A stretch of 64,000 nucleotides of DNA, from NCBI GenBank assembly GCA_963827475.1, contig CAWHAZ010000005.1:32001-96000 (forward strand), in the 5' to 3' direction. The position numbers and the translations under genes are program-made. Of the stretch, positions 52,774-60,292 are shown piece after piece. The notes beneath the pieces are model-generated. The model was not told where the DNA came from, did no database searches, and worked only from the letters and a program-made list of their open reading frames with translations. The stretch is from an uncultured Chloroflexia bacterium. Its GTDB lineage: Bacteria > Chloroflexota > Limnocylindria > QHBO01. Numbering within the stretch: position 1 is the stretch's first letter; the number at the start of each line of letters is the position of its first letter.

Positions 52774-53168
52774 GAGTCGGCCTCGCCGCCCCGCGTCCCC
52801 GCGTGGCCGGCCGCGACTCCGCGAGCGTGCCCGGTCCGCGGGACGACAACCCTGCCGTGGGTCAGGGCCTCGGCCCTGGGGAGCGTGATCGACAGGACAC
52901 CGTTGCCGTAGGTGACGTTGGCCCGCACCGCGTCGACCGGGTACGGGAGGTCGATCGTCCGCTGGTACGGACCGTACGACCACTCCCGCCGCAGGTGGGT
53001 GATCCGCTCCTGCCCCTCCCCTCGCTGCTCGGCGCGGAGGGTGAGCCGGCCGTCAGCCGTGACCTCGACGCTGATGTCCTCAGGGGCGACGCCGGGCATC
53101 GGCGCGACGACCATCAGCTCGCGCTCGTTCTCGAACAGGTTGACCGGAACCTCCGGACCGATGGTCAT
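52770..53168 (-). CDS. Hsp20/alpha-crystallin family protein
   Basis: MPGVAPEDI, REWSYGPYQRTIDLP, YGNGVLSITLP. Confidence 0.88.
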   Translation of the reverse strand: MTIGPEVPVNLFENERELMVVAPMPGVAPEDISVEVTADGRLTLRAEQRGEGQERITHLRREWSYGPYQRTIDLPYPVDAVRANVTYGNGVLSITLPRAEALTHGRVVVPRTGHARGVAAGHAGTRGGEADS

Positions 53169-53171
53169 CGG

Positions 53172-54389
53172 TCAGTCGGGGAAGGCCTCGGGGCCGCGCT
53201 CGGCAAGCTCGCGGGCCTCGGCATCGGCGTCCCTGGCCGGCAGCCAGCTGAAGGGGTAGGCCGGGTCCTCCAGCTCGCCCGCCTGGCGGGTGAGCTGGAG
53301 CGGGTGGAAGGTGTCGATCATCACCGCCAGCTCCTCGGTCGCCTCCCGACCGATGGACGCCTCGACCGTTCCCGGGTGCGGTCCGTGGGGGATCCCGGCT
53401 GGATGGACGGTGAACGAGCTGATGTCCACCCCGCGGCGGCTCATGAAGTTGCCGGCCACGTAGTAGATGACCTCGTCCGAGTTGATGTTCGAGTGGTTGT
53501 ACGGGGCGGGGATGGCCAACGGGTGGTAGTCGAACTTGCGCGGCACGAAGCTGCAGATGACGTAGTTGCGCGGCTGGAAGGTGAGGTGGACCGGCGGCGG
53601 CTGGTGGACCCGTCCGGTGATCGGTTCGAAGTCGGAGATGTTGAAGGCGAACGGCCACAGGTGCCCGTCCCAGCCGACGAGGTCGAAGGGGTGGTGCTGG
53701 TAGTGGTAGGCGGTGATCCGGCCGCGGGTCTTGACCTCGATCACGAAGTCGCCGCTCTCCGTGTTCGCCGCCATCTCGGCGGGCGGTCGAAGGTCGCGCT
53801 CGCAGTACGGGGAGTGCTCGAGGAGCTGGCCGAAGTCGTTGCGATAGCGCTTGGGCGGGACGATGGCCGACGGCGACTCGACCCACAGCATCCGCTGCGC
53901 CTCGCCCGCCGCCGGGACGACGCGGTACGTCGTTCCGATGGGAATGACCAGGTAGTCGCCGGGGCCGTAGTCGATCGGTCCGAAGATCGTCTCCAGCGTC
54001 CCGTGCCCCTCGTGGACGAACAGCATCTCGTCCGCCTCGCCGTTGCGGTAGTAGCGGGTCATCGCCTCCGCCGGCCGAACGACCCCGAAGGTGACGTCGT
54101 GGTTGAAGAACAGCGGGATCCGGCCGGAGAGGGCGTCACCGGACGGCTCGACGTCCTTGGTGTTCACCAGGTAGTGGCGATGCGGCGCGTCCGACCAGGC
54201 CTCGAGGGCGACGTCTCGAACCTTCTCGATGCGGTTGGTTCGGGTTGGCGGGGTGTGGTGGTACAGGAGGGACGCTCGACCGCTGAAGCCCTCGACCCCG
54301 AACAGCTCCTCCGCGTAGAGCGTGCCGTCGTCCTTCCGGAACTGGGTGTGGCGCTTGGGCGGCACCTGGCCGCGTTGGACGTAGAACAC
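53172..54389 (-). CDS. hmgA: Homogentisate 1,2-dioxygenase family protein
   Basis: HPFDLVGWDG, VHQPPPVH, PYNHSNINSDEV, HPAGIPHGPHP. Confidence 0.88.
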   Translation of the reverse strand: MFYVQRGQVPPKRHTQFRKDDGTLYAEELFGVEGFSGRASLLYHHTPPTRTNRIEKVRDVALEAWSDAPHRHYLVNTKDVEPSGDALSGRIPLFFNHDVTFGVVRPAEAMTRYYRNGEADEMLFVHEGHGTLETIFGPIDYGPGDYLVIPIGTTYRVVPAAGEAQRMLWVESPSAIVPPKRYRNDFGQLLEHSPYCERDLRPPAEMAANTESGDFVIEVKTRGRITAYHYQHHPFDLVGWDGHLWPFAFNISDFEPITGRVHQPPPVHLTFQPRNYVICSFVPRKFDYHPLAIPAPYNHSNINSDEVIYYVAGNFMSRRGVDISSFTVHPAGIPHGPHPGTVEASIGREATEELAVMIDTFHPLQLTRQAGELEDPAYPFSWLPARDADAEARELAERGPEAFPD

Positions 54390-54455
54390 GAGACGGCCAT
54401 TCTAGGTCGGCGCCGGCTGCGGCCGGTCGATCGCCCGGTGCGGGATGGACCTGGA

Positions 54456-55298
54456 TCAGCCCGTGGTCCGGCGGCGGCCCGGCCTGGGGTTGTCAGCCAC
54501 CGCCGCGAGCACCGCTTTCAGCTCGAACGGGGTCAGGCCCGGGTGCTTGGACAGGATGAGCGCGGCCATGCCGGCCACGTGGGGAGCGGCGAACGAGTTG
54601 CCGGTGGCCACCGTCTCGGTGCCGTCCTTCCAGGCGATCGGCACGTCCACGCCCCAGGCACCGAACTCGACCGGCGGGTTGGGGTTGTAGTACAGGCGCC
54701 ACTTGTCCGGCTCGGCATGCGCGGCGACCGAGACCACGCTGCTGAACAGCGACGGATACGAGGCCACGTTCACGTTGTTGGCCGCGCTGACCAGGATCAC
54801 GTTGCGGAAGTAGGCCTCGTCCGCGAGCTCGTGGAAGACGGGGTACAGGGCCTCGCTCTTCGACGACAGGCTCAGGTTGGCGACCTGGACCCCGCGCTCG
54901 ATGGCCCACGACAGCCCCTCGGCGAACGCCGCGCCCTTTCCCTTCAGGTCCTCGTTCAGGACCCGGACCGAGACGATGTCGGCGTCCGGGGCGAGGTCCA
55001 GGATGATCCCCGCGCAGGCCGTGCCGTGGCCGTAGAGGTCGATCGGCTCGTCGGGCACGACCTCCGTGTCCCCGCGCCGATCAACGCGAACCGCGACGCT
55101 TTCCACCAGCCGATCCTCGAGCCACGGATGGTCGCCCTCGACTCCACTGTCGATGACGGCCACCGTCACGCCCTTGCCGGTCGCCCCTCCCCAGGCCCAC
55201 GACCGATCGATCCGCCGCAGCCCGGCGCGACGGGCCAGCCGATCGGCCGCGGCGAATGGCTCGGCCCAGGCGGGCAGCTCCTCCGGTTCGACCGACAT
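54456..55298 (-). CDS. S8 (subtilisin-like) serine peptidase, compact, no signal peptide
   Basis: VAVIDSG (Asp), GHGTACAG (His), GNSFAAPHVAG (Ser), VSAANN. Confidence 0.92.
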   Translation of the reverse strand: MSVEPEELPAWAEPFAAADRLARRAGLRRIDRSWAWGGATGKGVTVAVIDSGVEGDHPWLEDRLVESVAVRVDRRGDTEVVPDEPIDLYGHGTACAGIILDLAPDADIVSVRVLNEDLKGKGAAFAEGLSWAIERGVQVANLSLSSKSEALYPVFHELADEAYFRNVILVSAANNVNVASYPSLFSSVVSVAAHAEPDKWRLYYNPNPPVEFGAWGVDVPIAWKDGTETVATGNSFAAPHVAGMAALILSKHPGLTPFELKAVLAAVADNPRPGRRRTTG

Positions 55299-55305
55299 CG
55301 GTCCG

Positions 55306-56100
55306 TCAGCGACGGCGGGAATAGGTGCGCCGAGAGGCCGCGTTGGCGGCAATGGCGGCCAGGACGTCGCTGACCAGGCTCAGCTCCGCCTCTCCCAGCC
55401 CCCGGAGCTGGGCCACCTGGTCCGCCAGCCGCCAGTACGGGCTGTCGGCGTCGAGGTCCATGTCGTCGGAAGCCGCGGCGACCAGGGCATCGAGCTGGGC
55501 ATCGGTCAGGCCGTTGCCGGTGGCTCGGGAGAAGGCGGTGCGGAGCAGCTGCGGCAGCTCGCGTTGGGCTCGGGTCACGGCGATGGCGGTCGCGGCCTGG
55601 GCGGCGAAGACCCCGATCAGCTCCATGTCGCGGAGGTCGAAGGTGGCCGATCCCTTCTTGTCGAGGACCTGGAGCACGCCGTGGGTGCCCAGCTCATCGG
55701 TGAGGGGCACGGCGGCGATCGAACGGGGCACGTAGCCGGTCTTCTCCGCCGTCTTGCGGTCGAACCGTGGATCCGACGCGACGTCTGACAGGGCAATGGC
55801 CTGGCCGGTGGAGTACACGAAGCCGGCGATGCCCTGGCTCGGTTTCACGCTCTTCCCGATCGCGCCCGCGCCCTGCGGGCCAGCGGCGACCCGAAACTCG
55901 AGCCGGTCGGGGTTGCGCTCGAAGAGCGCGATCGACGCCGCCTCGGCGTCGAACAGGCGGACCGTGGCATCCACGATCGACTGCAGGAGACGCTCCTCTC
56001 CGCCGGGGTGGAGCCGATCGGCCACCGCGGCCCGCTCGGCCCCGGCGCGAACGATGGCCAGCGCCTGGTCCAGGGCCCGCGACGAGGGGCGGCTGCTCAT
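55306..56100 (-). CDS. Stand-alone GAF-domain protein
   Basis: DAEAASIAL, GIAGFV, DVASDPRF, RSIAAVPL, GVLQVLDK, FDLRDMEL. Confidence 0.88.
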   Translation of the reverse strand: MSSRPSSRALDQALAIVRAGAERAAVADRLHPGGEERLLQSIVDATVRLFDAEAASIALFERNPDRLEFRVAAGPQGAGAIGKSVKPSQGIAGFVYSTGQAIALSDVASDPRFDRKTAEKTGYVPRSIAAVPLTDELGTHGVLQVLDKKGSATFDLRDMELIGVFAAQAATAIAVTRAQRELPQLLRTAFSRATGNGLTDAQLDALVAAASDDMDLDADSPYWRLADQVAQLRGLGEAELSLVSDVLAAIAANAASRRTYSRRR

Positions 56101-56111
56101 CGGGGCATAGC

Positions 56112-56143
56112 GTAAGGCGGCGGGGGGAGCCCCGCCGCCTTAC
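56112..56143 (-). terminator. 14-bp perfect stem-loop after the repeat-protein gene
   Basis: GTAAGGCGGCGGGG-GGAG-CCCCGCCGCCTTAC (plus strand). Confidence 0.75.
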
Positions 56144-56161
56144 CTGCTCGGGAAGCTGTCG

Positions 56162-56680
56162 TTACCGCTTCTTGGCCGGCGATGCCTTGGCCTTTGCCCG
56201 CGCTCGGGCGTGGCCCTGGGTGTCGTCACCGGTCGCCCGCTTCTTGGCGGGAGATGCGGCCTTGGCCTTCGCCCGGGCTCGGGCGTGGCCCTCGGTGTCG
56301 TCATCGGCGCGGGTGCGGGCCCGGGTCTTCGCCTTGCTGACGGCGCGGGTCTTGGCCTTGGCGTGGGCGTGGCCCTCGGTGTCGTCATCGGCGCGGGTGC
56401 GGGCCCGAGTCTTCGCCTTGCTGACGGCGCGGGTCTTGGCCTTGGCGTGAGCGTGGCCCTCGGTGTCGTCATCGGCGCGGGTGCGGGCCCGAGTCTTCGC
56501 CTTGCTGACGGCACGAGTCTTGGCCTTGGCGTGGGCGTGGCCCTCGGTGTCGTCATCGGCGCGGGTACGGGCCCGAGTCTTCGCCTTGCTGACGGCACGA
56601 GTCTTGGCCTTGGTATGGGCGTGGCCTTCCACGTCCTCGTCTCCGGAGACGCGGCCCCGGACTCTGGCTCTCTGGTCCAT
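56162..56680 (-). CDS. Tandem-repeat protein, putative multi-cassette peptide precursor (DDTEGH repeats)
   Basis: GGGAGG RBS; six D-D-[TV]-[EQ]-G-H motifs, each followed by an Ala/Lys/Arg-rich cassette. Confidence 0.8.
   Translation of the reverse strand: MDQRARVRGRVSGDEDVEGHAHTKAKTRAVSKAKTRARTRADDDTEGHAHAKAKTRAVSKAKTRARTRADDDTEGHAHAKAKTRAVSKAKTRARTRADDDTEGHAHAKAKTRAVSKAKTRARTRADDDTEGHARARAKAKAASPAKKRATGDDTQGHARARAKAKASPAKKR
56285..56620 (-). repeat. 4 x 84-bp coding tandem repeat (AHAKAKTRAVSKAKTRARTRADDDTEGH)
   Basis: Visible directly; copies differ mostly at synonymous positions. Confidence 0.92.
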
Positions 56681-56739
56681 GGTGGTTTCTAGCCTCCCGA
56701 TTGTTGCTCCGGACCCGATGGCCCGGAATCTCGGGCCTC

Positions 56740-56807
56740 ACGGTATGGAACCAGCCTTGCCGGTACCGATCACACCGGCGACAGCTGGGGTGTCAATTGG
56801 CCGACAC
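56740..56807 (-). promoter_or_regulatory. Putative CRP/FNR-activated promoter of the repeat gene
   Basis: TGTCA-N6-CGACA (56791-56806), GATCA-N6-CGACA (56768-56783), -10 TACCGT (56745-56740). Confidence 0.5.
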
Positions 56808-56823
56808 GGCGCTCCGGCCGATC

Positions 56824-57534
56824 CTAGCGAACCGCGAGTTGTTCCAGACGGTCGAGATCGGGGATCACCAATGTCTCGCGCTCGATGCGCACCAGTCCGC
56901 GATCGACGAGGTCGACCAGCAGCCGGTTCACGCTCTGGCGCGTGGCGCCAATCATGGCAGCCAGATCGGATTGTGTGAAGGGCCATTCGAGCCGGGCCTC
57001 CAGGCGGCCGTCATCGGTGCGCTGCGGCGGAGGATCCGCCTCCCGGGCCAGGCGCACGAGGCGGCTGGCCAGCCGCCCGCTGAGGTCGAGGAAGTGGAGC
57101 TCCTCGACGTGCCCGGTCAGGCGCCGCAGCTCGGCGGCCAGCGAGCGGAGCAGGCAGTCGCGCAGCCGCTCGCTGCGCCCGATCTCCTCGAGGAACGTGT
57201 CCCGGGGCAGGCTCACCGTCTCGGTCGCCTCGACCGCGGCAGCGGTCGCGGAACGTGGCGAGCCGTCCAGCAGGGAGAGCTCGCCGAAGAAGTCGCCCGG
57301 ATGGAGCGTGGCGATGATCGCCTCGTCGCCCTCGTCCGAGGACAGCACGATCTTCACCGCCCCCGACGCGACGACGTGCAGGGCATCGGCCGGATCGCCC
57401 TCGTGGAAGATGACCTCGCCCCGCCGGAATCGGCGGCGGCGGACATGGCGGACGACCTCCGCCAGATCTTCCGGCTCCGCACCGGTGAACAGCGGGCACC
57501 GCAACAGCAGGCCCAGGGTCACATCGTCAGCCAT
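56824..57534 (-). CDS. Crp/Fnr-family transcriptional regulator
   Basis: IFHEGD, FFGELSLLDGSPRSATA cNMP pocket, HTH TQSDLAAMIGATRQSVNRLL. Confidence 0.95.
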   Translation of the reverse strand: MADDVTLGLLLRCPLFTGAEPEDLAEVVRHVRRRRFRRGEVIFHEGDPADALHVVASGAVKIVLSSDEGDEAIIATLHPGDFFGELSLLDGSPRSATAAAVEATETVSLPRDTFLEEIGRSERLRDCLLRSLAAELRRLTGHVEELHFLDLSGRLASRLVRLAREADPPPQRTDDGRLEARLEWPFTQSDLAAMIGATRQSVNRLLVDLVDRGLVRIERETLVIPDLDRLEQLAVR

Positions 57535-59199
57535 TGCTCGGTCCCTCCTCGGCGGAAGCGTCCAGGCGCGCCGCGGCGCCGCGGTGCATGTCCAGCAGGC
57601 GTGAGGTGAGCCCCGGCCCGGCACCCACCAGCTCGAGGAATCGCTGGACCGTCGAGCGCGAGCAGCGCGCCCTCCGCGGCGGCGGTCACGGTCGCGGTTC
57701 GCGGCACGCTGCGCAGCAGTCCGATCTCCCCGAAAACCTCGTCCGGCCCCAGCGTCCGGAGGAACCGCGGCGCGCCGCCCGGATCCTTGGTCTGGGTCAC
57801 CTCGAACGCCCCGTCGAGGATGTGGAAGAAGCGATCCGCGGGGTCGCCCTGGCGGACCACGACCTCACCCGGCAGGACCCGCACGCGAGACAGGTGGCGG
57901 GCAGCCTGCTCCAGGGAGGCGGGCGAAGGCCCATCGAAGAGCGGCAGCCGGACGAAGCGGTCCGCGCCCGGGTCGAGGCGGAGGCGCCGCCGATCGGCCG
58001 ACCACCAGCGTCCCGATCAGGGTGGCCGCGACCATCGCGATGCCAAACCCCAGGAGGACGACGACCGGTCCGACGATCGCCGCCAGGACCGGAGCCAGGA
58101 AAGCGCCGAGCGCGTAGGCGGTCACGGTCACCGTGTCCATCGCGCCGATGGTCCGGCCCCGGATCGCGTCGGGCACCTCGCGCTGGAAGATGGTGGTGGC
58201 CACCACCTCGAGGACGAGCATTCCCGCGGTCGCCACCGCCATGGCGGCGATGGCCGCCAGCAGCACCGCCGACTGGCCGACCAGGATCACCCCGACACCC
58301 AGGGTCACGCCGCCCACCGCCAGCGGGACGTCGAGCCGGCGACGGAGGGTCATCGGTCCCGCGACCAGCGCCCCGATCAGCCCGCCCAGCCCGATCGCCG
58401 CGTTCAGCCACCCGGTCCCCGCGTCGCCCGCCCCGAGCACCTCGATGGCGATGACCACGGTCAGCACGGCCAGCCCGCCCGACACGAACCCATCGACCAG
58501 GTTGATGAGCCCGAGGCCCGAGAGCGGCCGGATCGCCGGTCGCACCGCTTCCCGGAAGGCCGGCTGTGGCTCCGCTCCCGCGTCCTCGGCGGCGACCCGG
58601 CCCCGGGCCTGATCACGAGGCAGACGCCACAGGACCGCGGCGACGACCATGAAGCTGACCGCGTTCAGGAAGAAGGCGAGCGGAATGCTGCCCAGGCTGA
58701 TGAGGATGGCGCCGACCGCCGGCCCGATGATGAACGCGAGGTTGTCCAGGCTCGACCACGCCGCGTTGGCCGGGCCGAGCTCGCGCTCATCGGTGACCAG
58801 GGTCGGGATGAGCGAGCCGATGGCCGGCGAGAAGAAGGCGGAGAAGCATGCCGCCAGCAGGCTGAGCGCGACGATGAGCAGGATGTCCCCGCCCAGCAGG
58901 GTCAGGGCGGTGAGGGCGAGCATGATCAGCCCGCGGGCGACGTCGGTGACGATCAGGATGAGACGGCGGTCGTACCGATCGGCGGCGATGCCGGCCGGGA
59001 CCGACAGCAGGATGTAGGGCACGATCCGGGCCGCGCCGACGATCCCGAGCACGAGCGGCGACGCTCCGGATCGGTACACGACCACCAGCAGGGCGACGAG
59101 GTACAGCCAGTCGCCGATGGATGACACGAACTCCCCGACGAACAGGCGGGCGAGGGCCGGATTGGCGAAGACACGCCGGTAGGTCGCGAGGCTGCCCAT
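57527..59199 (-). CDS. MFS transporter fused to C-terminal cyclic-nucleotide-binding domain (frameshifts near 57890-57990 and 57645)
   Basis: GIAADRYDRRLIL MFS motif, about 12 TM; then VVRQGDPADRF, FGEIGLLRSVPRTATV. Confidence 0.85.
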
Positions 59200-59236
59200 C
59201 GGTCCGGCCAGTCTAGTGCGTACACTCGGCACGCCC

Positions 59237-60292
59237 ATGGCGGTCCCGGTCATTCGCTCCAACGCCCACCTCGCCCACGACAAGCTCGTGGAGGTCGACT
59301 TCGGGAAGCCGATTCCCGGGTACGAGGTGCCCGCTCGCGCGATCGAGATCGAGAACGCGCTGGTCGAGGCCGGCGGCTATCGGTTCGAGGAACCGACCCA
59401 CCATGGGGAGCTGCCGATCCTCGCCGTCCACGACCAGGCGCTGCTCGAGGTCCTGGCCACCGCCTGGGAGGACGCGATTGCCGCCGGCGTCACCGACGGC
59501 ACCCAGCCGCTCATCCCGGGCACCCTGCTGACGACGGCCTACGCCGCCGGCCACGACACCGGCCTGCCGGCCCCCGGCTATCGGCTGTTCGGCTACACGT
59601 TCGACACCGCCACCCCGATCGTGGCGGGCACCTACCGCGCCGCGCGCGTCTCGGTGGACGTGGCCCTCACCGCCCTCGACCGGTCCCGCGGCGGGGCGCA
59701 CATCGCGTACGGCCTGTGCCGCCCGCCGGGCCACCATGCGGGGCGTGCCCTGTACGGCGGCTATTGCTTCTTCAACAACGCGGCGATCGTGGCCCAGGCG
59801 CTCTCGGACGGCGGCGCGTCCCGGGTCGCGATCCTCGACATCGACTACCACCACGGGAACGGGACGCAGCAGCTGTTCTGGGAGCGTCACGACGTGCTGT
59901 ACGTCTCGCTCCACGGCGACCCGAGCCGCGCCTATCCGTATTACTCCGGCTACGACAACGAGGTCGGCTTCGGGGCGGGCGAGGGCATGAACCTGAACAT
60001 TCCGCTCCCCCCGCGGACCGACGGCGATGCCTACCTCGCGGCGCTGGAGATCGGGTTGCAGGCCATCCAGGACCACGACCCCGACAGCCCGCTCGTCGTG
60101 TCCCTCGGCTTCGACACCTTCGAGCGCGACCCGATCGCCGATTTCGCGCTGAAGACCGAGGACTACCACCGGATCGGTGCCGCGATCGGTGAGCTCGATC
60201 GGCCGGTCATCGCGCTCCAGGAAGGCGGATACGCGATCGACGCGCTGGGGGCCAACGCCGCCAGCTTCTTCGCGGGCCTCCGGGGCCGATAG
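59237..60292 (+). CDS. Histone deacetylase family / acetylpolyamine amidohydrolase-like protein
   Basis: RPPGHHA, GYCFFNN, DIDYHHGNGTQ, SLGFD, QEGGY. Confidence 0.93.
   Translation: MAVPVIRSNAHLAHDKLVEVDFGKPIPGYEVPARAIEIENALVEAGGYRFEEPTHHGELPILAVHDQALLEVLATAWEDAIAAGVTDGTQPLIPGTLLTTAYAAGHDTGLPAPGYRLFGYTFDTATPIVAGTYRAARVSVDVALTALDRSRGGAHIAYGLCRPPGHHAGRALYGGYCFFNNAAIVAQALSDGGASRVAILDIDYHHGNGTQQLFWERHDVLYVSLHGDPSRAYPYYSGYDNEVGFGAGEGMNLNIPLPPRTDGDAYLAALEIGLQAIQDHDPDSPLVVSLGFDTFERDPIADFALKTEDYHRIGAAIGELDRPVIALQEGGYAIDALGANAASFFAGLRGR

Follow-up and report, generated by a model that had tools for sequence, protein, structure and literature searches.

This work concerns a 64,000-nucleotide stretch of DNA from an uncultured Chloroflexia bacterium of the Limnocylindria (contig CAWHAZ010000005.1), called here the window, and within it a minus-strand gene that encodes a 172-aa tandem-repeat protein, which we name REP. 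The protein is small and evolves fast. It belongs to a family of soil Chloroflexota that is defined, in its sequences, solely by an acidic run followed by D-(T/V)-E-G-H, and whose genes nearly always accompany those of a Crp-family regulator, a GAF-domain protein, a subtilase of peptidase family S8 and a major facilitator superfamily (MFS) transporter. Judged from sequence, only the multivalent display of D(T/V)EGH is conserved in REP itself, and only Crp, GAF, S8 and MFS_3 are conserved in its surroundings. The REP cluster points to an undescribed protease-linked protein system. Our preferred reading, to which we give slightly less than an even chance, is that REP is a disordered multi-site substrate or precursor whose repeated motif is recognised by the S8 peptidase. 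The gene and the elements of its coding sequence lie as follows, in coordinates of the window.

56162..56680, minus strand: REP gene, 172-aa tandem-repeat protein (stop codon 56162-56164, ATG 56678-56680)
56693..56698, minus strand: Shine-Dalgarno sequence GGGAGG, 12 nt 5' of the REP ATG, kept within the genus
56621..56635, minus strand: motif 1, DVEGH, residues 16-20, closing the conserved N-terminal head
56537..56551, minus strand: motif 2, DTEGH, residues 44-48
56453..56467, minus strand: motif 3, DTEGH, residues 72-76
56369..56383, minus strand: motif 4, DTEGH, residues 100-104
56285..56299, minus strand: motif 5, DTEGH, residues 128-132
56210..56224, minus strand: motif 6, DTQGH, residues 153-157
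56281..56626: 84-nt tandem repeat, 4.1 copies, 96% match, the DNA basis of the 28-aa units (Tandem Repeats Finder)
56165-56307: 75-nt tandem repeat, 1.9 copies (Tandem Repeats Finder)

In translation a 20-aa head is followed by four units of 28 aa, one of 25 aa and a tail of 15 aa, in exact agreement with the first-pass annotation of this open reading frame (ORF), which had described a head, four 28-aa units and two further pieces. The head (M1-H20) closes with DEDVEGH; the 28-aa units read AH(T/A)KAKTRAVSKAKTRARTRADDDTEGH, with 8 K/R and 4 D/E apiece and a single T/A difference among all four; the 25-aa unit, ARARAKAKAASPAKKRATGDDTQGH, ends in GDDTQGH, and the basic tail, ARARAKAKASPAKKR, in SPAKKR. 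D(T/V)(E/Q)GH is present six times in the assembly, the Logan contigs that bear on copy number being all short and many of them fitting two places of the repeat. Several metagenome-assembled genomes carry the array in broken or frameshifted form (L052/L074 over two frames, L059 and L109/L117 with runs of N/X, and L015). In the 1.92-Mb genome a strict DNA pattern for DD(T/V)EGH has four matches, every one inside REP, against 0 for the backwards-read control. A relaxed five-residue DNA pattern gives 19 matches, 6 of them in REP and the others scattered singles, and no second motif array was found in the genome with it. As the earlier annotation had held, no signal peptide or hydrophobic stretch is visible in REP, by inspection only and without a predictor.

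REP is a real gene. Its GC content at third codon positions (GC3) is 0.85, vs 0.87-0.90 in the adjoining genes; the pairwise codon differences among the four 28-aa units comprise 20 synonymous against 3 non-synonymous changes; and the N-terminus is conserved in 12/12 aligned orthologues. These signals, together with the Shine-Dalgarno sequence, identify the frame as coding. Contigs from rhizosphere metatranscriptomes (three runs), at 92-99% identity, cover 30/30 depth bins of the Crp-REP-GAF-S8 stretch, and some RNA-library contigs span the REP 5' end, its leader and the 3' end of the Crp gene. Summed contig depth is higher at the REP bins than to either side in three RNA runs and level throughout in one DNA run, although such depth, coming from contigs with repeat pieces that fit two places, cannot rank genes. 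Because the depth is contig-based, the repeats fit doubly and DNA may be carried over, the claim is limited to presence in RNA libraries. Sequence of close relatives occurs in soil, rhizosphere and mine-drainage runs, the coverage being drawn from three rhizosphere RNA runs and one mine-drainage run. That REP could be a chance open frame in a GC-rich DNA repeat is hardly credible: the repeat is open in two further frames as well (152 aa and 160 aa), but GC3, synonymous bias, ribosome-binding sequence and conserved start favour the REP frame, a motif conserved across classes with varying codons appears in that frame only, and contigs from RNA libraries cover REP. This view is already contradicted by the coding signals, by a logo of 314 motifs and by a family of 747 representatives, described next.

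REP orthologues were found in 17/17 other genomes of the genus, a tally that takes in the unpublished genome G016. Within the genus REP proteins are 48-90% identical and display 3-7 motifs, and the neighbouring proteins are 71-98% identical; an alignment of 12 orthologues shows that the head, MDxxIRVRG(R/K)VSGDDDVEGH, the motif and the basic tail are kept. Beyond the genus the spacers become unrecognisable and the motif is retained. Examples of such spacers are HQKVRKHERIADDDDVEGH, RAKLPGAADDTEGH, KRTRAVGDDDDVEGH, GGKFKATDDDDTEGH and RFQAADDDTEGH; others consist of long GVHTSG, GIAK, AHKPTS or GKLQ micro-repeats ahead of the motif, and another Chloroflexota family has His-rich spacer units (HKHHHGRAE and KHTHHGAPKHVHHGAP). 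The first-pass annotation had noted that a motif ending in GH persists while the cassettes fall into two classes, and had proposed a pattern search in related genomes. The persistence of the motif, as the conserved functional unit, holds well beyond the window: D, G and H are invariant in 314/314 motifs between unrelated spacers, and D(T/V)EGH arrays are kept in homologues throughout the genus and in the family members checked.

The logo, built from 314 motifs of 69 distinct relatives' proteins, has a core of D 100%, T 58% / V 42%, E 86%, G 100% and H 100%. Acidic residues (D/E) occupy positions -4 to -6 in 59-89% of motifs; after the motif His, positions +3 and +4 are enriched in K/R (at +3 also in T), and His stands at +2 in 27%. 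In general the motif precedes two residues that vary and then, in most cases, a pair that is basic or hydrophobic. The motif is displayed 2-9 times per protein with periods of 12 to 46 aa, the spacers of 7 to 40 aa varying in composition and charge. A 30-column profile of motif-centred windows, searched against 1.84 billion proteins, matched 747 cluster representatives at E<=1e-3, of which 56 also pass <=1e-10. Among 149 matches that were checked (lengths 36-242 aa), at least two motifs occur in 149/149 and at least three in 139/149; the first motif starts at median residue 20, and 71/149 proteins end no more than 8 residues past the last one. Membership was assigned to proteins of <250 aa with at least two copies of an acidic run plus D-(T/V)-(E/Q/S/T)-G-H and with variable spacers, a description that includes the window REP. 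Family members all bear the source name 'hypothetical protein'. For REP itself, Pfam gave 0 families at E<=1, NCBIfam low-complexity matches only, far under the cut-offs, PADLOC 0 matches, and a search for look-alikes in the ESM Atlas no usable match; among diverse relatives, no Pfam family scored above cut-off in 17 and no NCBIfam family in 8. A literature search on the motif strings, and on Limnocylindria with subtilisin or peptidase, found nothing relevant.

The second line of evidence is the company that the motif keeps. The domain scan of the cluster covered 53172-59283 and identified the following genes around REP.

57865..59283, minus strand: MFS transporter, MFS_1 / MFS_3 'transmembrane secretion effector' (Pfam), co-clustered with REP
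57519..57884, minus strand: 121-aa ORF with a domain like those that bind cyclic nucleotide monophosphates (cNMP), between MFS and Crp; a weaker tblastn match of the Crp query
56824..57624, minus strand: Crp/Fnr-family regulator, cNMP-binding domain plus HTH_Crp_2 (PF00027 3e-28, PF13545 9e-18), directly upstream of REP
55306..56100, minus strand: 264-aa protein with a GAF domain at 35-174 and an unassigned C-terminal part of ~90 aa (PF13185 1.4e-16)
54456..55298, minus strand: S8 subtilase, read from the second Met as about 280 aa, with the longest ORF starting at 55352 (PF00082 2.5e-32)
53172-54389, minus strand: cupin / homogentisate-dioxygenase-N-like protein (HgmA-like), 405 aa, abutting S8

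The order MFS-cNMP ORF-Crp-REP-GAF-S8 is found in 13/14 loci (L002-L015), the remaining one, L014, being truncated to GAF and S8 only. In an S8-anchored set comprising the best 80 of 570 relatives in species-representative genomes, GAF adjoins S8 directly upstream in 79/80 loci. Where at least 450 nt are available upstream of GAF, a same-strand ORF with at least two motifs is present in 53/64; the loci with shorter flanks show a partial array at the contig edge in 7/16. Another Chloroflexota family keeps the genes together in shuffled order, for example Crp-REP-S8-GAF (3/4 loci, the contig of the fourth being too short). In metagenome loci anchored on the REP-type protein P0059, the array has a homologue of Crp, MFS, GAF or S8 next to it in 38/42 cases, and S8 or GAF in 20/42 with most contigs <3 kb, in orders as different as REP-Crp-GAF-S8, Crp-REP-MFS-cNMP-GAF-S8 and S8-REP. 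That the cluster is kept despite this shuffling argues for function over inherited order.

The same association emerges at the scale of the phylum, in a hand-counted sample of 401 genomes, including the unpublished G221 and G196, in which an S8 orthologue was called at E<=1e-45; the counts are descriptive, relatives not being independent. At least three pattern hits occur in 19/45 genomes with an S8 orthologue vs 4/356 without, and at least two in 26/45 vs 21/356. The hits are scattered singles in the three S8-negative genomes with at least three hits whose positions are listed, those of the fourth (G339) not being listed. Of the S8-positive genomes with listed motif positions, 19/20 have a motif no more than 5 kb from S8. 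Linkage to S8 across several families is what the reading of the motif as a processing site predicts.

The earlier annotation had not mentioned the linked S8 peptidase among its observations. Its catalytic triad (Asp50/His91/Ser235) and an N-terminal LPAW.EPF are invariant in 9/9 sequences, and the oxyanion Asn, aligned to N155 of subtilisin BPN', is kept; on inspection no signal peptide or prodomain was seen. Mapped on BPN', the enzyme has Val at 156 and Ser at 166 and lacks residues 157-162, and no clear specificity can be read from these positions. The best NCBIfam matches, both under cut-off, are a mycosin of type VII secretion systems (132.5 bits, cut-off 278.75) and QhpE (111 bits, cut-off 165); QhpE acts as a cytoplasmic maturation protease. 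The segment around the catalytic His, D-(L/V)-(Y/F/V)-G-H-(G/A), has the same D-x-x-G-H skeleton as the REP motif, which is probably a coincidence. The GAF domain has cyclic-nucleotide-binding GAF domains as its nearest solved relatives. For the 121-aa ORF, a second, weaker tblastn match of the Crp query is there in all loci of the genus, and weak PADLOC matches to effector models with cNMP-binding domains were obtained. Over the cluster PADLOC returned generic subtilase and cNMP-domain similarity only, and no defence system. The 405-aa cupin gene is syntenic in many relatives, and in some genera a motif-bearing membrane protein lies between it and S8. On the strand opposite the S8, GAF and cupin genes run long spurious ORFs of up to 856 aa, such as 52803-55373 on the plus strand, which DNA of 70% GC typically shows and which are not genes.

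The motif is not confined to REP-like arrays. In other genera a membrane-anchored protein of about 190-260 aa, with 2-3 motif copies, adjoins S8, and proteins of ~60-80 aa with a single motif were also found; examples of each are given here.

L052:4596-5369 (minus strand), L055:5195-5962 (plus strand), L056:5058-5618 (minus strand), L145, L146 and 11 more: membrane-anchored motif protein
L079:4138-4317 (minus strand), L086:4076-4252 (minus strand), L110:6860-7045 (minus strand), L081:7280-7525 (plus strand): single-motif proteins

The motifs of the membrane protein occur as ..SDVEGHxF.. and, last, as ..DDVEGHAISLRFPT.., followed by a helix and a transmembrane segment, and they look as if they lie in a folded N-terminal part. 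No Pfam family was found for this protein. An AlphaFold2 (AF2) model of the N-terminal part suggests that the second motif sits in a loop ahead of a beta-strand, with a mean predicted local distance difference test score (pLDDT) of 49, which is too low for a fold search. In the single-motif proteins D(V/T)EGH stands between an acidic head and a basic helix that is conserved (..ER.ARE..RQKE.R..); they occur near S8/Crp loci that have no repeat array, and 40 relatives were found, all named 'hypothetical'. The same basic helix also ends at least 13/149 of the repeat proteins, e.g. P0049, P0068 and P0081. Neither the membrane protein nor the single-motif protein was found in the window's genome, which is 90% complete, with the queries used. 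That unrelated proteins around one peptidase share the motif fits its recognition by a protein encoded in the cluster.

Recognition need not entail cleavage. The motifs could instead be uncut docking sites that hold copies of S8 or GAF inactive, as a pseudo-substrate, decoy or scaffold, until a cyclic-nucleotide signal arrives, an arrangement that we consider unlikely. The evidence that links REP to S8 applies to it equally; the neutral-looking, slippage-prone linkers of some relatives (GVHTSGVHTSG, GIAKGIAKGI, GKLQGKLQ) would suit a display of motifs like beads on a string; and a cytoplasmic protease without a prodomain or inhibitor of its own would need restraint. A search for longer homologues gave a single match, P0045, a 316-aa protein on one 1281-nt metagenome contig in which a REP-like array runs in frame into GAF, with REP tail, stop codon and the larger part of the following hairpin missing. 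This may be a natural fusion, which would bring motif and GAF together as docking supposes, but P0045 is a single contig that merely lacks the hairpin and is possibly an artefact, the assembly having skipped a GC-rich structure. The invariant triad of S8, for its part, shows that proteolysis matters, although not on what.

The invariant His and Asp of the motif also invite a reading as a metal site, in which the Asp/Glu run and the His would form a repeated site for Zn, Ni, Cu, Ca or Fe, REP would buffer, store or deliver the metal, and the protease would merely be a neighbour or recycle REP. We regard this as unlikely. In its favour, His has been gained independently in unrelated spacers (HKHHHGRAE, KHTHHGAPKHVHHGAP, GVHTSG, AHKPTS, and the His at +2), at least three His lie outside the motifs in 22/149 global members, and strong acidity prevails among the members. 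About half of these, however, have exactly one His per motif, and the conservation of T/V and G matches that of the potential ligands, a pattern suggestive of recognition by a protein. Furthermore, metal binding leaves the conserved linkage to S8, GAF and Crp unexplained, and the cluster genes scanned include no metal transporter or metallo-regulator domain.

REP is predicted to be intrinsically disordered. The AF2 model, built on an alignment of 12 sequences, has a mean pLDDT of 42.1, a predicted template modelling score of 0.11 and 167/172 residues below 50; the spacers are drawn, with low confidence, as helices interrupted at each motif. A disordered, highly charged and repeat-built protein could in principle be a stress hydrophilin, that is, a protectant like late embryogenesis abundant proteins or dehydrins that has no specific partner, the cluster then being inherited synteny only, and the soil, rhizosphere and mine-drainage settings of close relatives would be in keeping with such a role. 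The chance of this is slim: composition is variable whereas the five-residue motif is invariant, and the cluster is retained through rearrangements.

The charge of the spacers decides how far the functions first proposed for REP can be carried. From the first motif on, net charge is +10 to +29 in the genus and +20 in the sole sister-genus orthologue (G033), and it is -3 to -28 in most other genera; among global family members 128/149 are net negative and 20/149 net positive. Cationic cassettes, which the first-pass annotation had described after each motif, are thus confined to this genus and its sister genus. Two functions had been derived from them. Cleavage after GH would release two cationic peptide species in a ratio of about 4:2, with antimicrobial or membrane activity, a proposal consistent with the 8 K/R vs 4 D/E of each genus unit, with the precursor-like layout of head, motif and cassette and with the linked S8 and MFS genes. 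Most relatives, however, are net acidic and yet retain this cluster, neither an immunity gene nor a signal peptide was recognised, and no defence or bacteriocin model matched in NCBIfam or PADLOC, which makes this quite improbable. The other proposal was a histone-H1-like nucleic-acid binder, in which helix-prone AK/R-rich spacers and the SPAKK tail would bind, with the acidic motifs as modulators. The net charge of REP (about +26), its two SPAKK elements and the helical, low-confidence AF2 spacers speak for such a binder within the genus. This too is very improbable: basic character is not a property of the family, most homologues from other genera lack SPAKK, Pfam and NCBIfam show no similarity to the HU, H1 or Hc1 families, and the invariant motif is left without explanation. 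Since most members are net acidic, neither a cationic antimicrobial nor an H1-like role can be the function of the family, which is independent of cationic spacers; either would at most be something extra, limited to this genus and its sister genus.

The intergenic regions on either side of REP contain elements that bear on its control.

56791..56806, no strand assigned: palindrome TGTC-N8-GACA, candidate operator of Crp/FNR type, between the Crp stop and REP
56767-56784, minus strand: second, imperfect inverted repeat CTGTCGCCGGTGTGATCG, directly after TGTC-N8-GACA, conserved in the genus
56720..56737, minus strand: inverted repeat GGCCCG-N6-CGGGCC in the REP 5' leader, nearly identical across genus orthologues
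56112..56143, minus strand: perfect 14-bp GC-rich hairpin from the REP stop to the GAF start, no U tract (-37.3 kcal/mol, z -2.8)

The TGTC-N8-GACA palindrome, whose form we take to be that of Crp/FNR-type operators, is the sole copy in the window and recurs exactly in 46/46 related Crp-to-REP intergenic regions, against 2/46 (with up to one mismatch) in same-length control stretches inside the GAF gene. It is a candidate Crp-type operator for REP, which would accordingly appear to have a promoter region of its own; a scan for the sigma-70 consensus found no promoter in the Crp-REP intergenic region. The hairpin on the other side is kept in 12/12 of the orthologous loci that were examined; L003, L006 and L009 show compensatory changes, and in L057, from another genus, the hairpin has diverged. 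It is terminator-, attenuator- or stabiliser-like; a simple terminator scan found none in the intergenic regions, the hairpin having no T run. The S8 start lies 7 nt past the GAF stop, and the GAF and S8 genes are translationally coupled and set off from REP by the hairpin. Such a hairpin between a small, highly expressed gene and those of its enzymes would give a high ratio of substrate to enzyme.

Taken together, the preferred reading of REP as a multi-site substrate or precursor would work as follows. The adjacent Crp-family regulator would turn on REP upon a cyclic nucleotide signal; the cytoplasmic S8, probably together with or under the control of the cNMP-type GAF protein, would recognise D(T/V)EGH and cut REP at or beside each motif. 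REP would then act either as a polyprotein-like precursor from which numerous short peptides are released or as a protein made in abundance and open to rapid clearance. Cutting would yield cationic peptides of ~28 aa in this genus and short acidic ones in most other lineages, and the conserved MFS_3 pump may export a product. What the sequences show is a real gene, its family, the invariance of the motif, the conservation of cluster, palindrome and hairpin, and the intact triad of S8; the regulation by Crp, the recognition and cleavage by S8 and the export are inferred. A more specific version is a Chloroflexota-wide 'peptide factory' under cyclic-nucleotide control, consisting of no more than REP as a ribosomal multi-copy precursor, a cytoplasmic S8 that is partnered by GAF and cleaves at D(T/V)EGH, and MFS_3 as exporter. 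Its exported product would be either the hypervariable cassettes (in this genus the cationic ~28-mers), serving each lineage as signals or weapons of its own, or else the invariant acidic-His peptide, a small molecule for metal binding or signalling of which each translation would give many copies. We think this version unlikely.

Several observations weigh against the substrate or precursor reading. Subtilases usually prefer hydrophobic residues at P1/P4, and the mapping on BPN' shows neither an acidic S1 pocket nor a site that would obviously accommodate His or an acidic run. No modification enzymes are present among the six neighbours scanned, no signal peptide was seen, and an MFS pump is an unusual exporter for peptides of 12-28 aa. 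At 11/64 S8 loci an array of at least two motifs is absent from the expected place; in eight of these Crp is close to or abuts GAF, one of the eight (L081) having there a short two-motif ORF that the motif regex overlooked, and several other array-less loci have a single-motif protein of ~60 aa nearby. One genome carries Crp-REP on a 7.4-kb contig without GAF-S8, its S8 lying on another contig beside a single motif; the partners are therefore not strictly obligatory neighbours. Synteny, much of it within one class, could partly reflect common descent, the relatives not being independent. Depth in the RNA runs, finally, is contig-based and unable to rank genes, and carry-over of DNA into the RNA libraries is possible.

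The significance of the system lies in the motif and its partners. A sizeable family without a profile match among the members scanned, in which five residues would carry all function, would be a clean bacterial example of a short-linear-motif protein. This motif is tied to a widely conserved gene set, namely Crp with its putative operator, GAF, a cytoplasmic subtilase and an MFS pump, and it bears on substrate recognition by intracellular subtilases and on cyclic-nucleotide control of proteolysis in Limnocylindria, an abundant, uncultured lineage of soil and freshwater. If cleavage is true, protease and motif would form a new pair of enzyme and recognition site and a source of lineage-specific peptides; if the 'peptide factory' is true, a new class of unmodified bacterial peptides, guided by leader and motif, would be at hand.

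Among known systems, partial likenesses are found in histone-like tails, intracellular subtilisins and spore proteins. AK-rich tails occur in H1-type proteins and at the C-terminus of mycobacterial HupB-type proteins, and the REP segments of the genus resemble them in being Ala/Lys/Arg-rich, helix-prone and strongly basic, with SPAKK; REP differs in its acidic motif every 28 aa, in the lack of basic character in most family members and in having no family match. The likeness to intracellular subtilisins (ISPs) belongs to the S8 neighbour and not to REP: the enzyme is small and signal-less, has no classical prodomain and carries a short conserved N-terminal extension, LPAW.EPF. The solved ISPs 7y6m and 7xr8 are among its PDB matches, but it resembles ISPs (E about 1e-20) no more closely than it does secreted subtilisins (E about 1e-24). 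A literature search found no paper joining an intracellular subtilisin with a GAF domain, nor a GAF partner or repeat substrate for ISPs. The small acid-soluble spore proteins (SASPs) of Bacillus carry a conserved cleavage motif for one dedicated cytoplasmic protease, GPR, which acts at germination. An abundant small protein with a motif for one cytoplasmic protease, quickly cleared, is what is proposed for REP as well, although GPR is not an S8 enzyme, SASPs are non-repeat, conserved DNA binders, and no sporulation context is evident at REP.

The closest known logic appears to be that of multi-core precursors cut by subtilisin-like proteases, as in cyanobactins and in fungal repeat precursors processed by kexin. 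Cyanobactin PatE is a multi-core precursor of peptides that are made on ribosomes and modified after translation (RiPPs), cut by the subtilisin-like PatA and PatG. It has in common with REP a short head, repeated hypervariable cassettes, a conserved flanking recognition motif and an S8 peptidase in the cluster. The REP cluster departs from it in several respects: the six neighbours scanned (53172-59283) include no heterocyclase, macrocyclase, prenyltransferase or other tailoring gene; the window S8, of about 280 aa and with no extra domain, scores 27 bits on the PatA/PatG model TIGR03895, whose cut-off is 421; and the motif, the phylum (Chloroflexota) and the presence of Crp and GAF regulators are different. 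A cyanobactin-type system was rejected on both the PatA/PatG family score and the tailoring enzymes. Kexin-processed repeat precursors include yeast alpha-factor, the dikaritins and epichloecyclin gigA with kexB, and in some such systems the product is the conserved repeat element itself. They are part of the secretory pathway of eukaryotes and have signal peptides and dibasic sites, whereas REP and S8 both lack a signal peptide and the putative site is acidic-Gly-His. What they share with REP are tandem copies parted by a protease site (putative here), an endoprotease of the S8 family and a copy number that varies among relatives. If cleavage at D(T/V)EGH is true, REP would be a bacterial counterpart of these eukaryotic repeat precursors.

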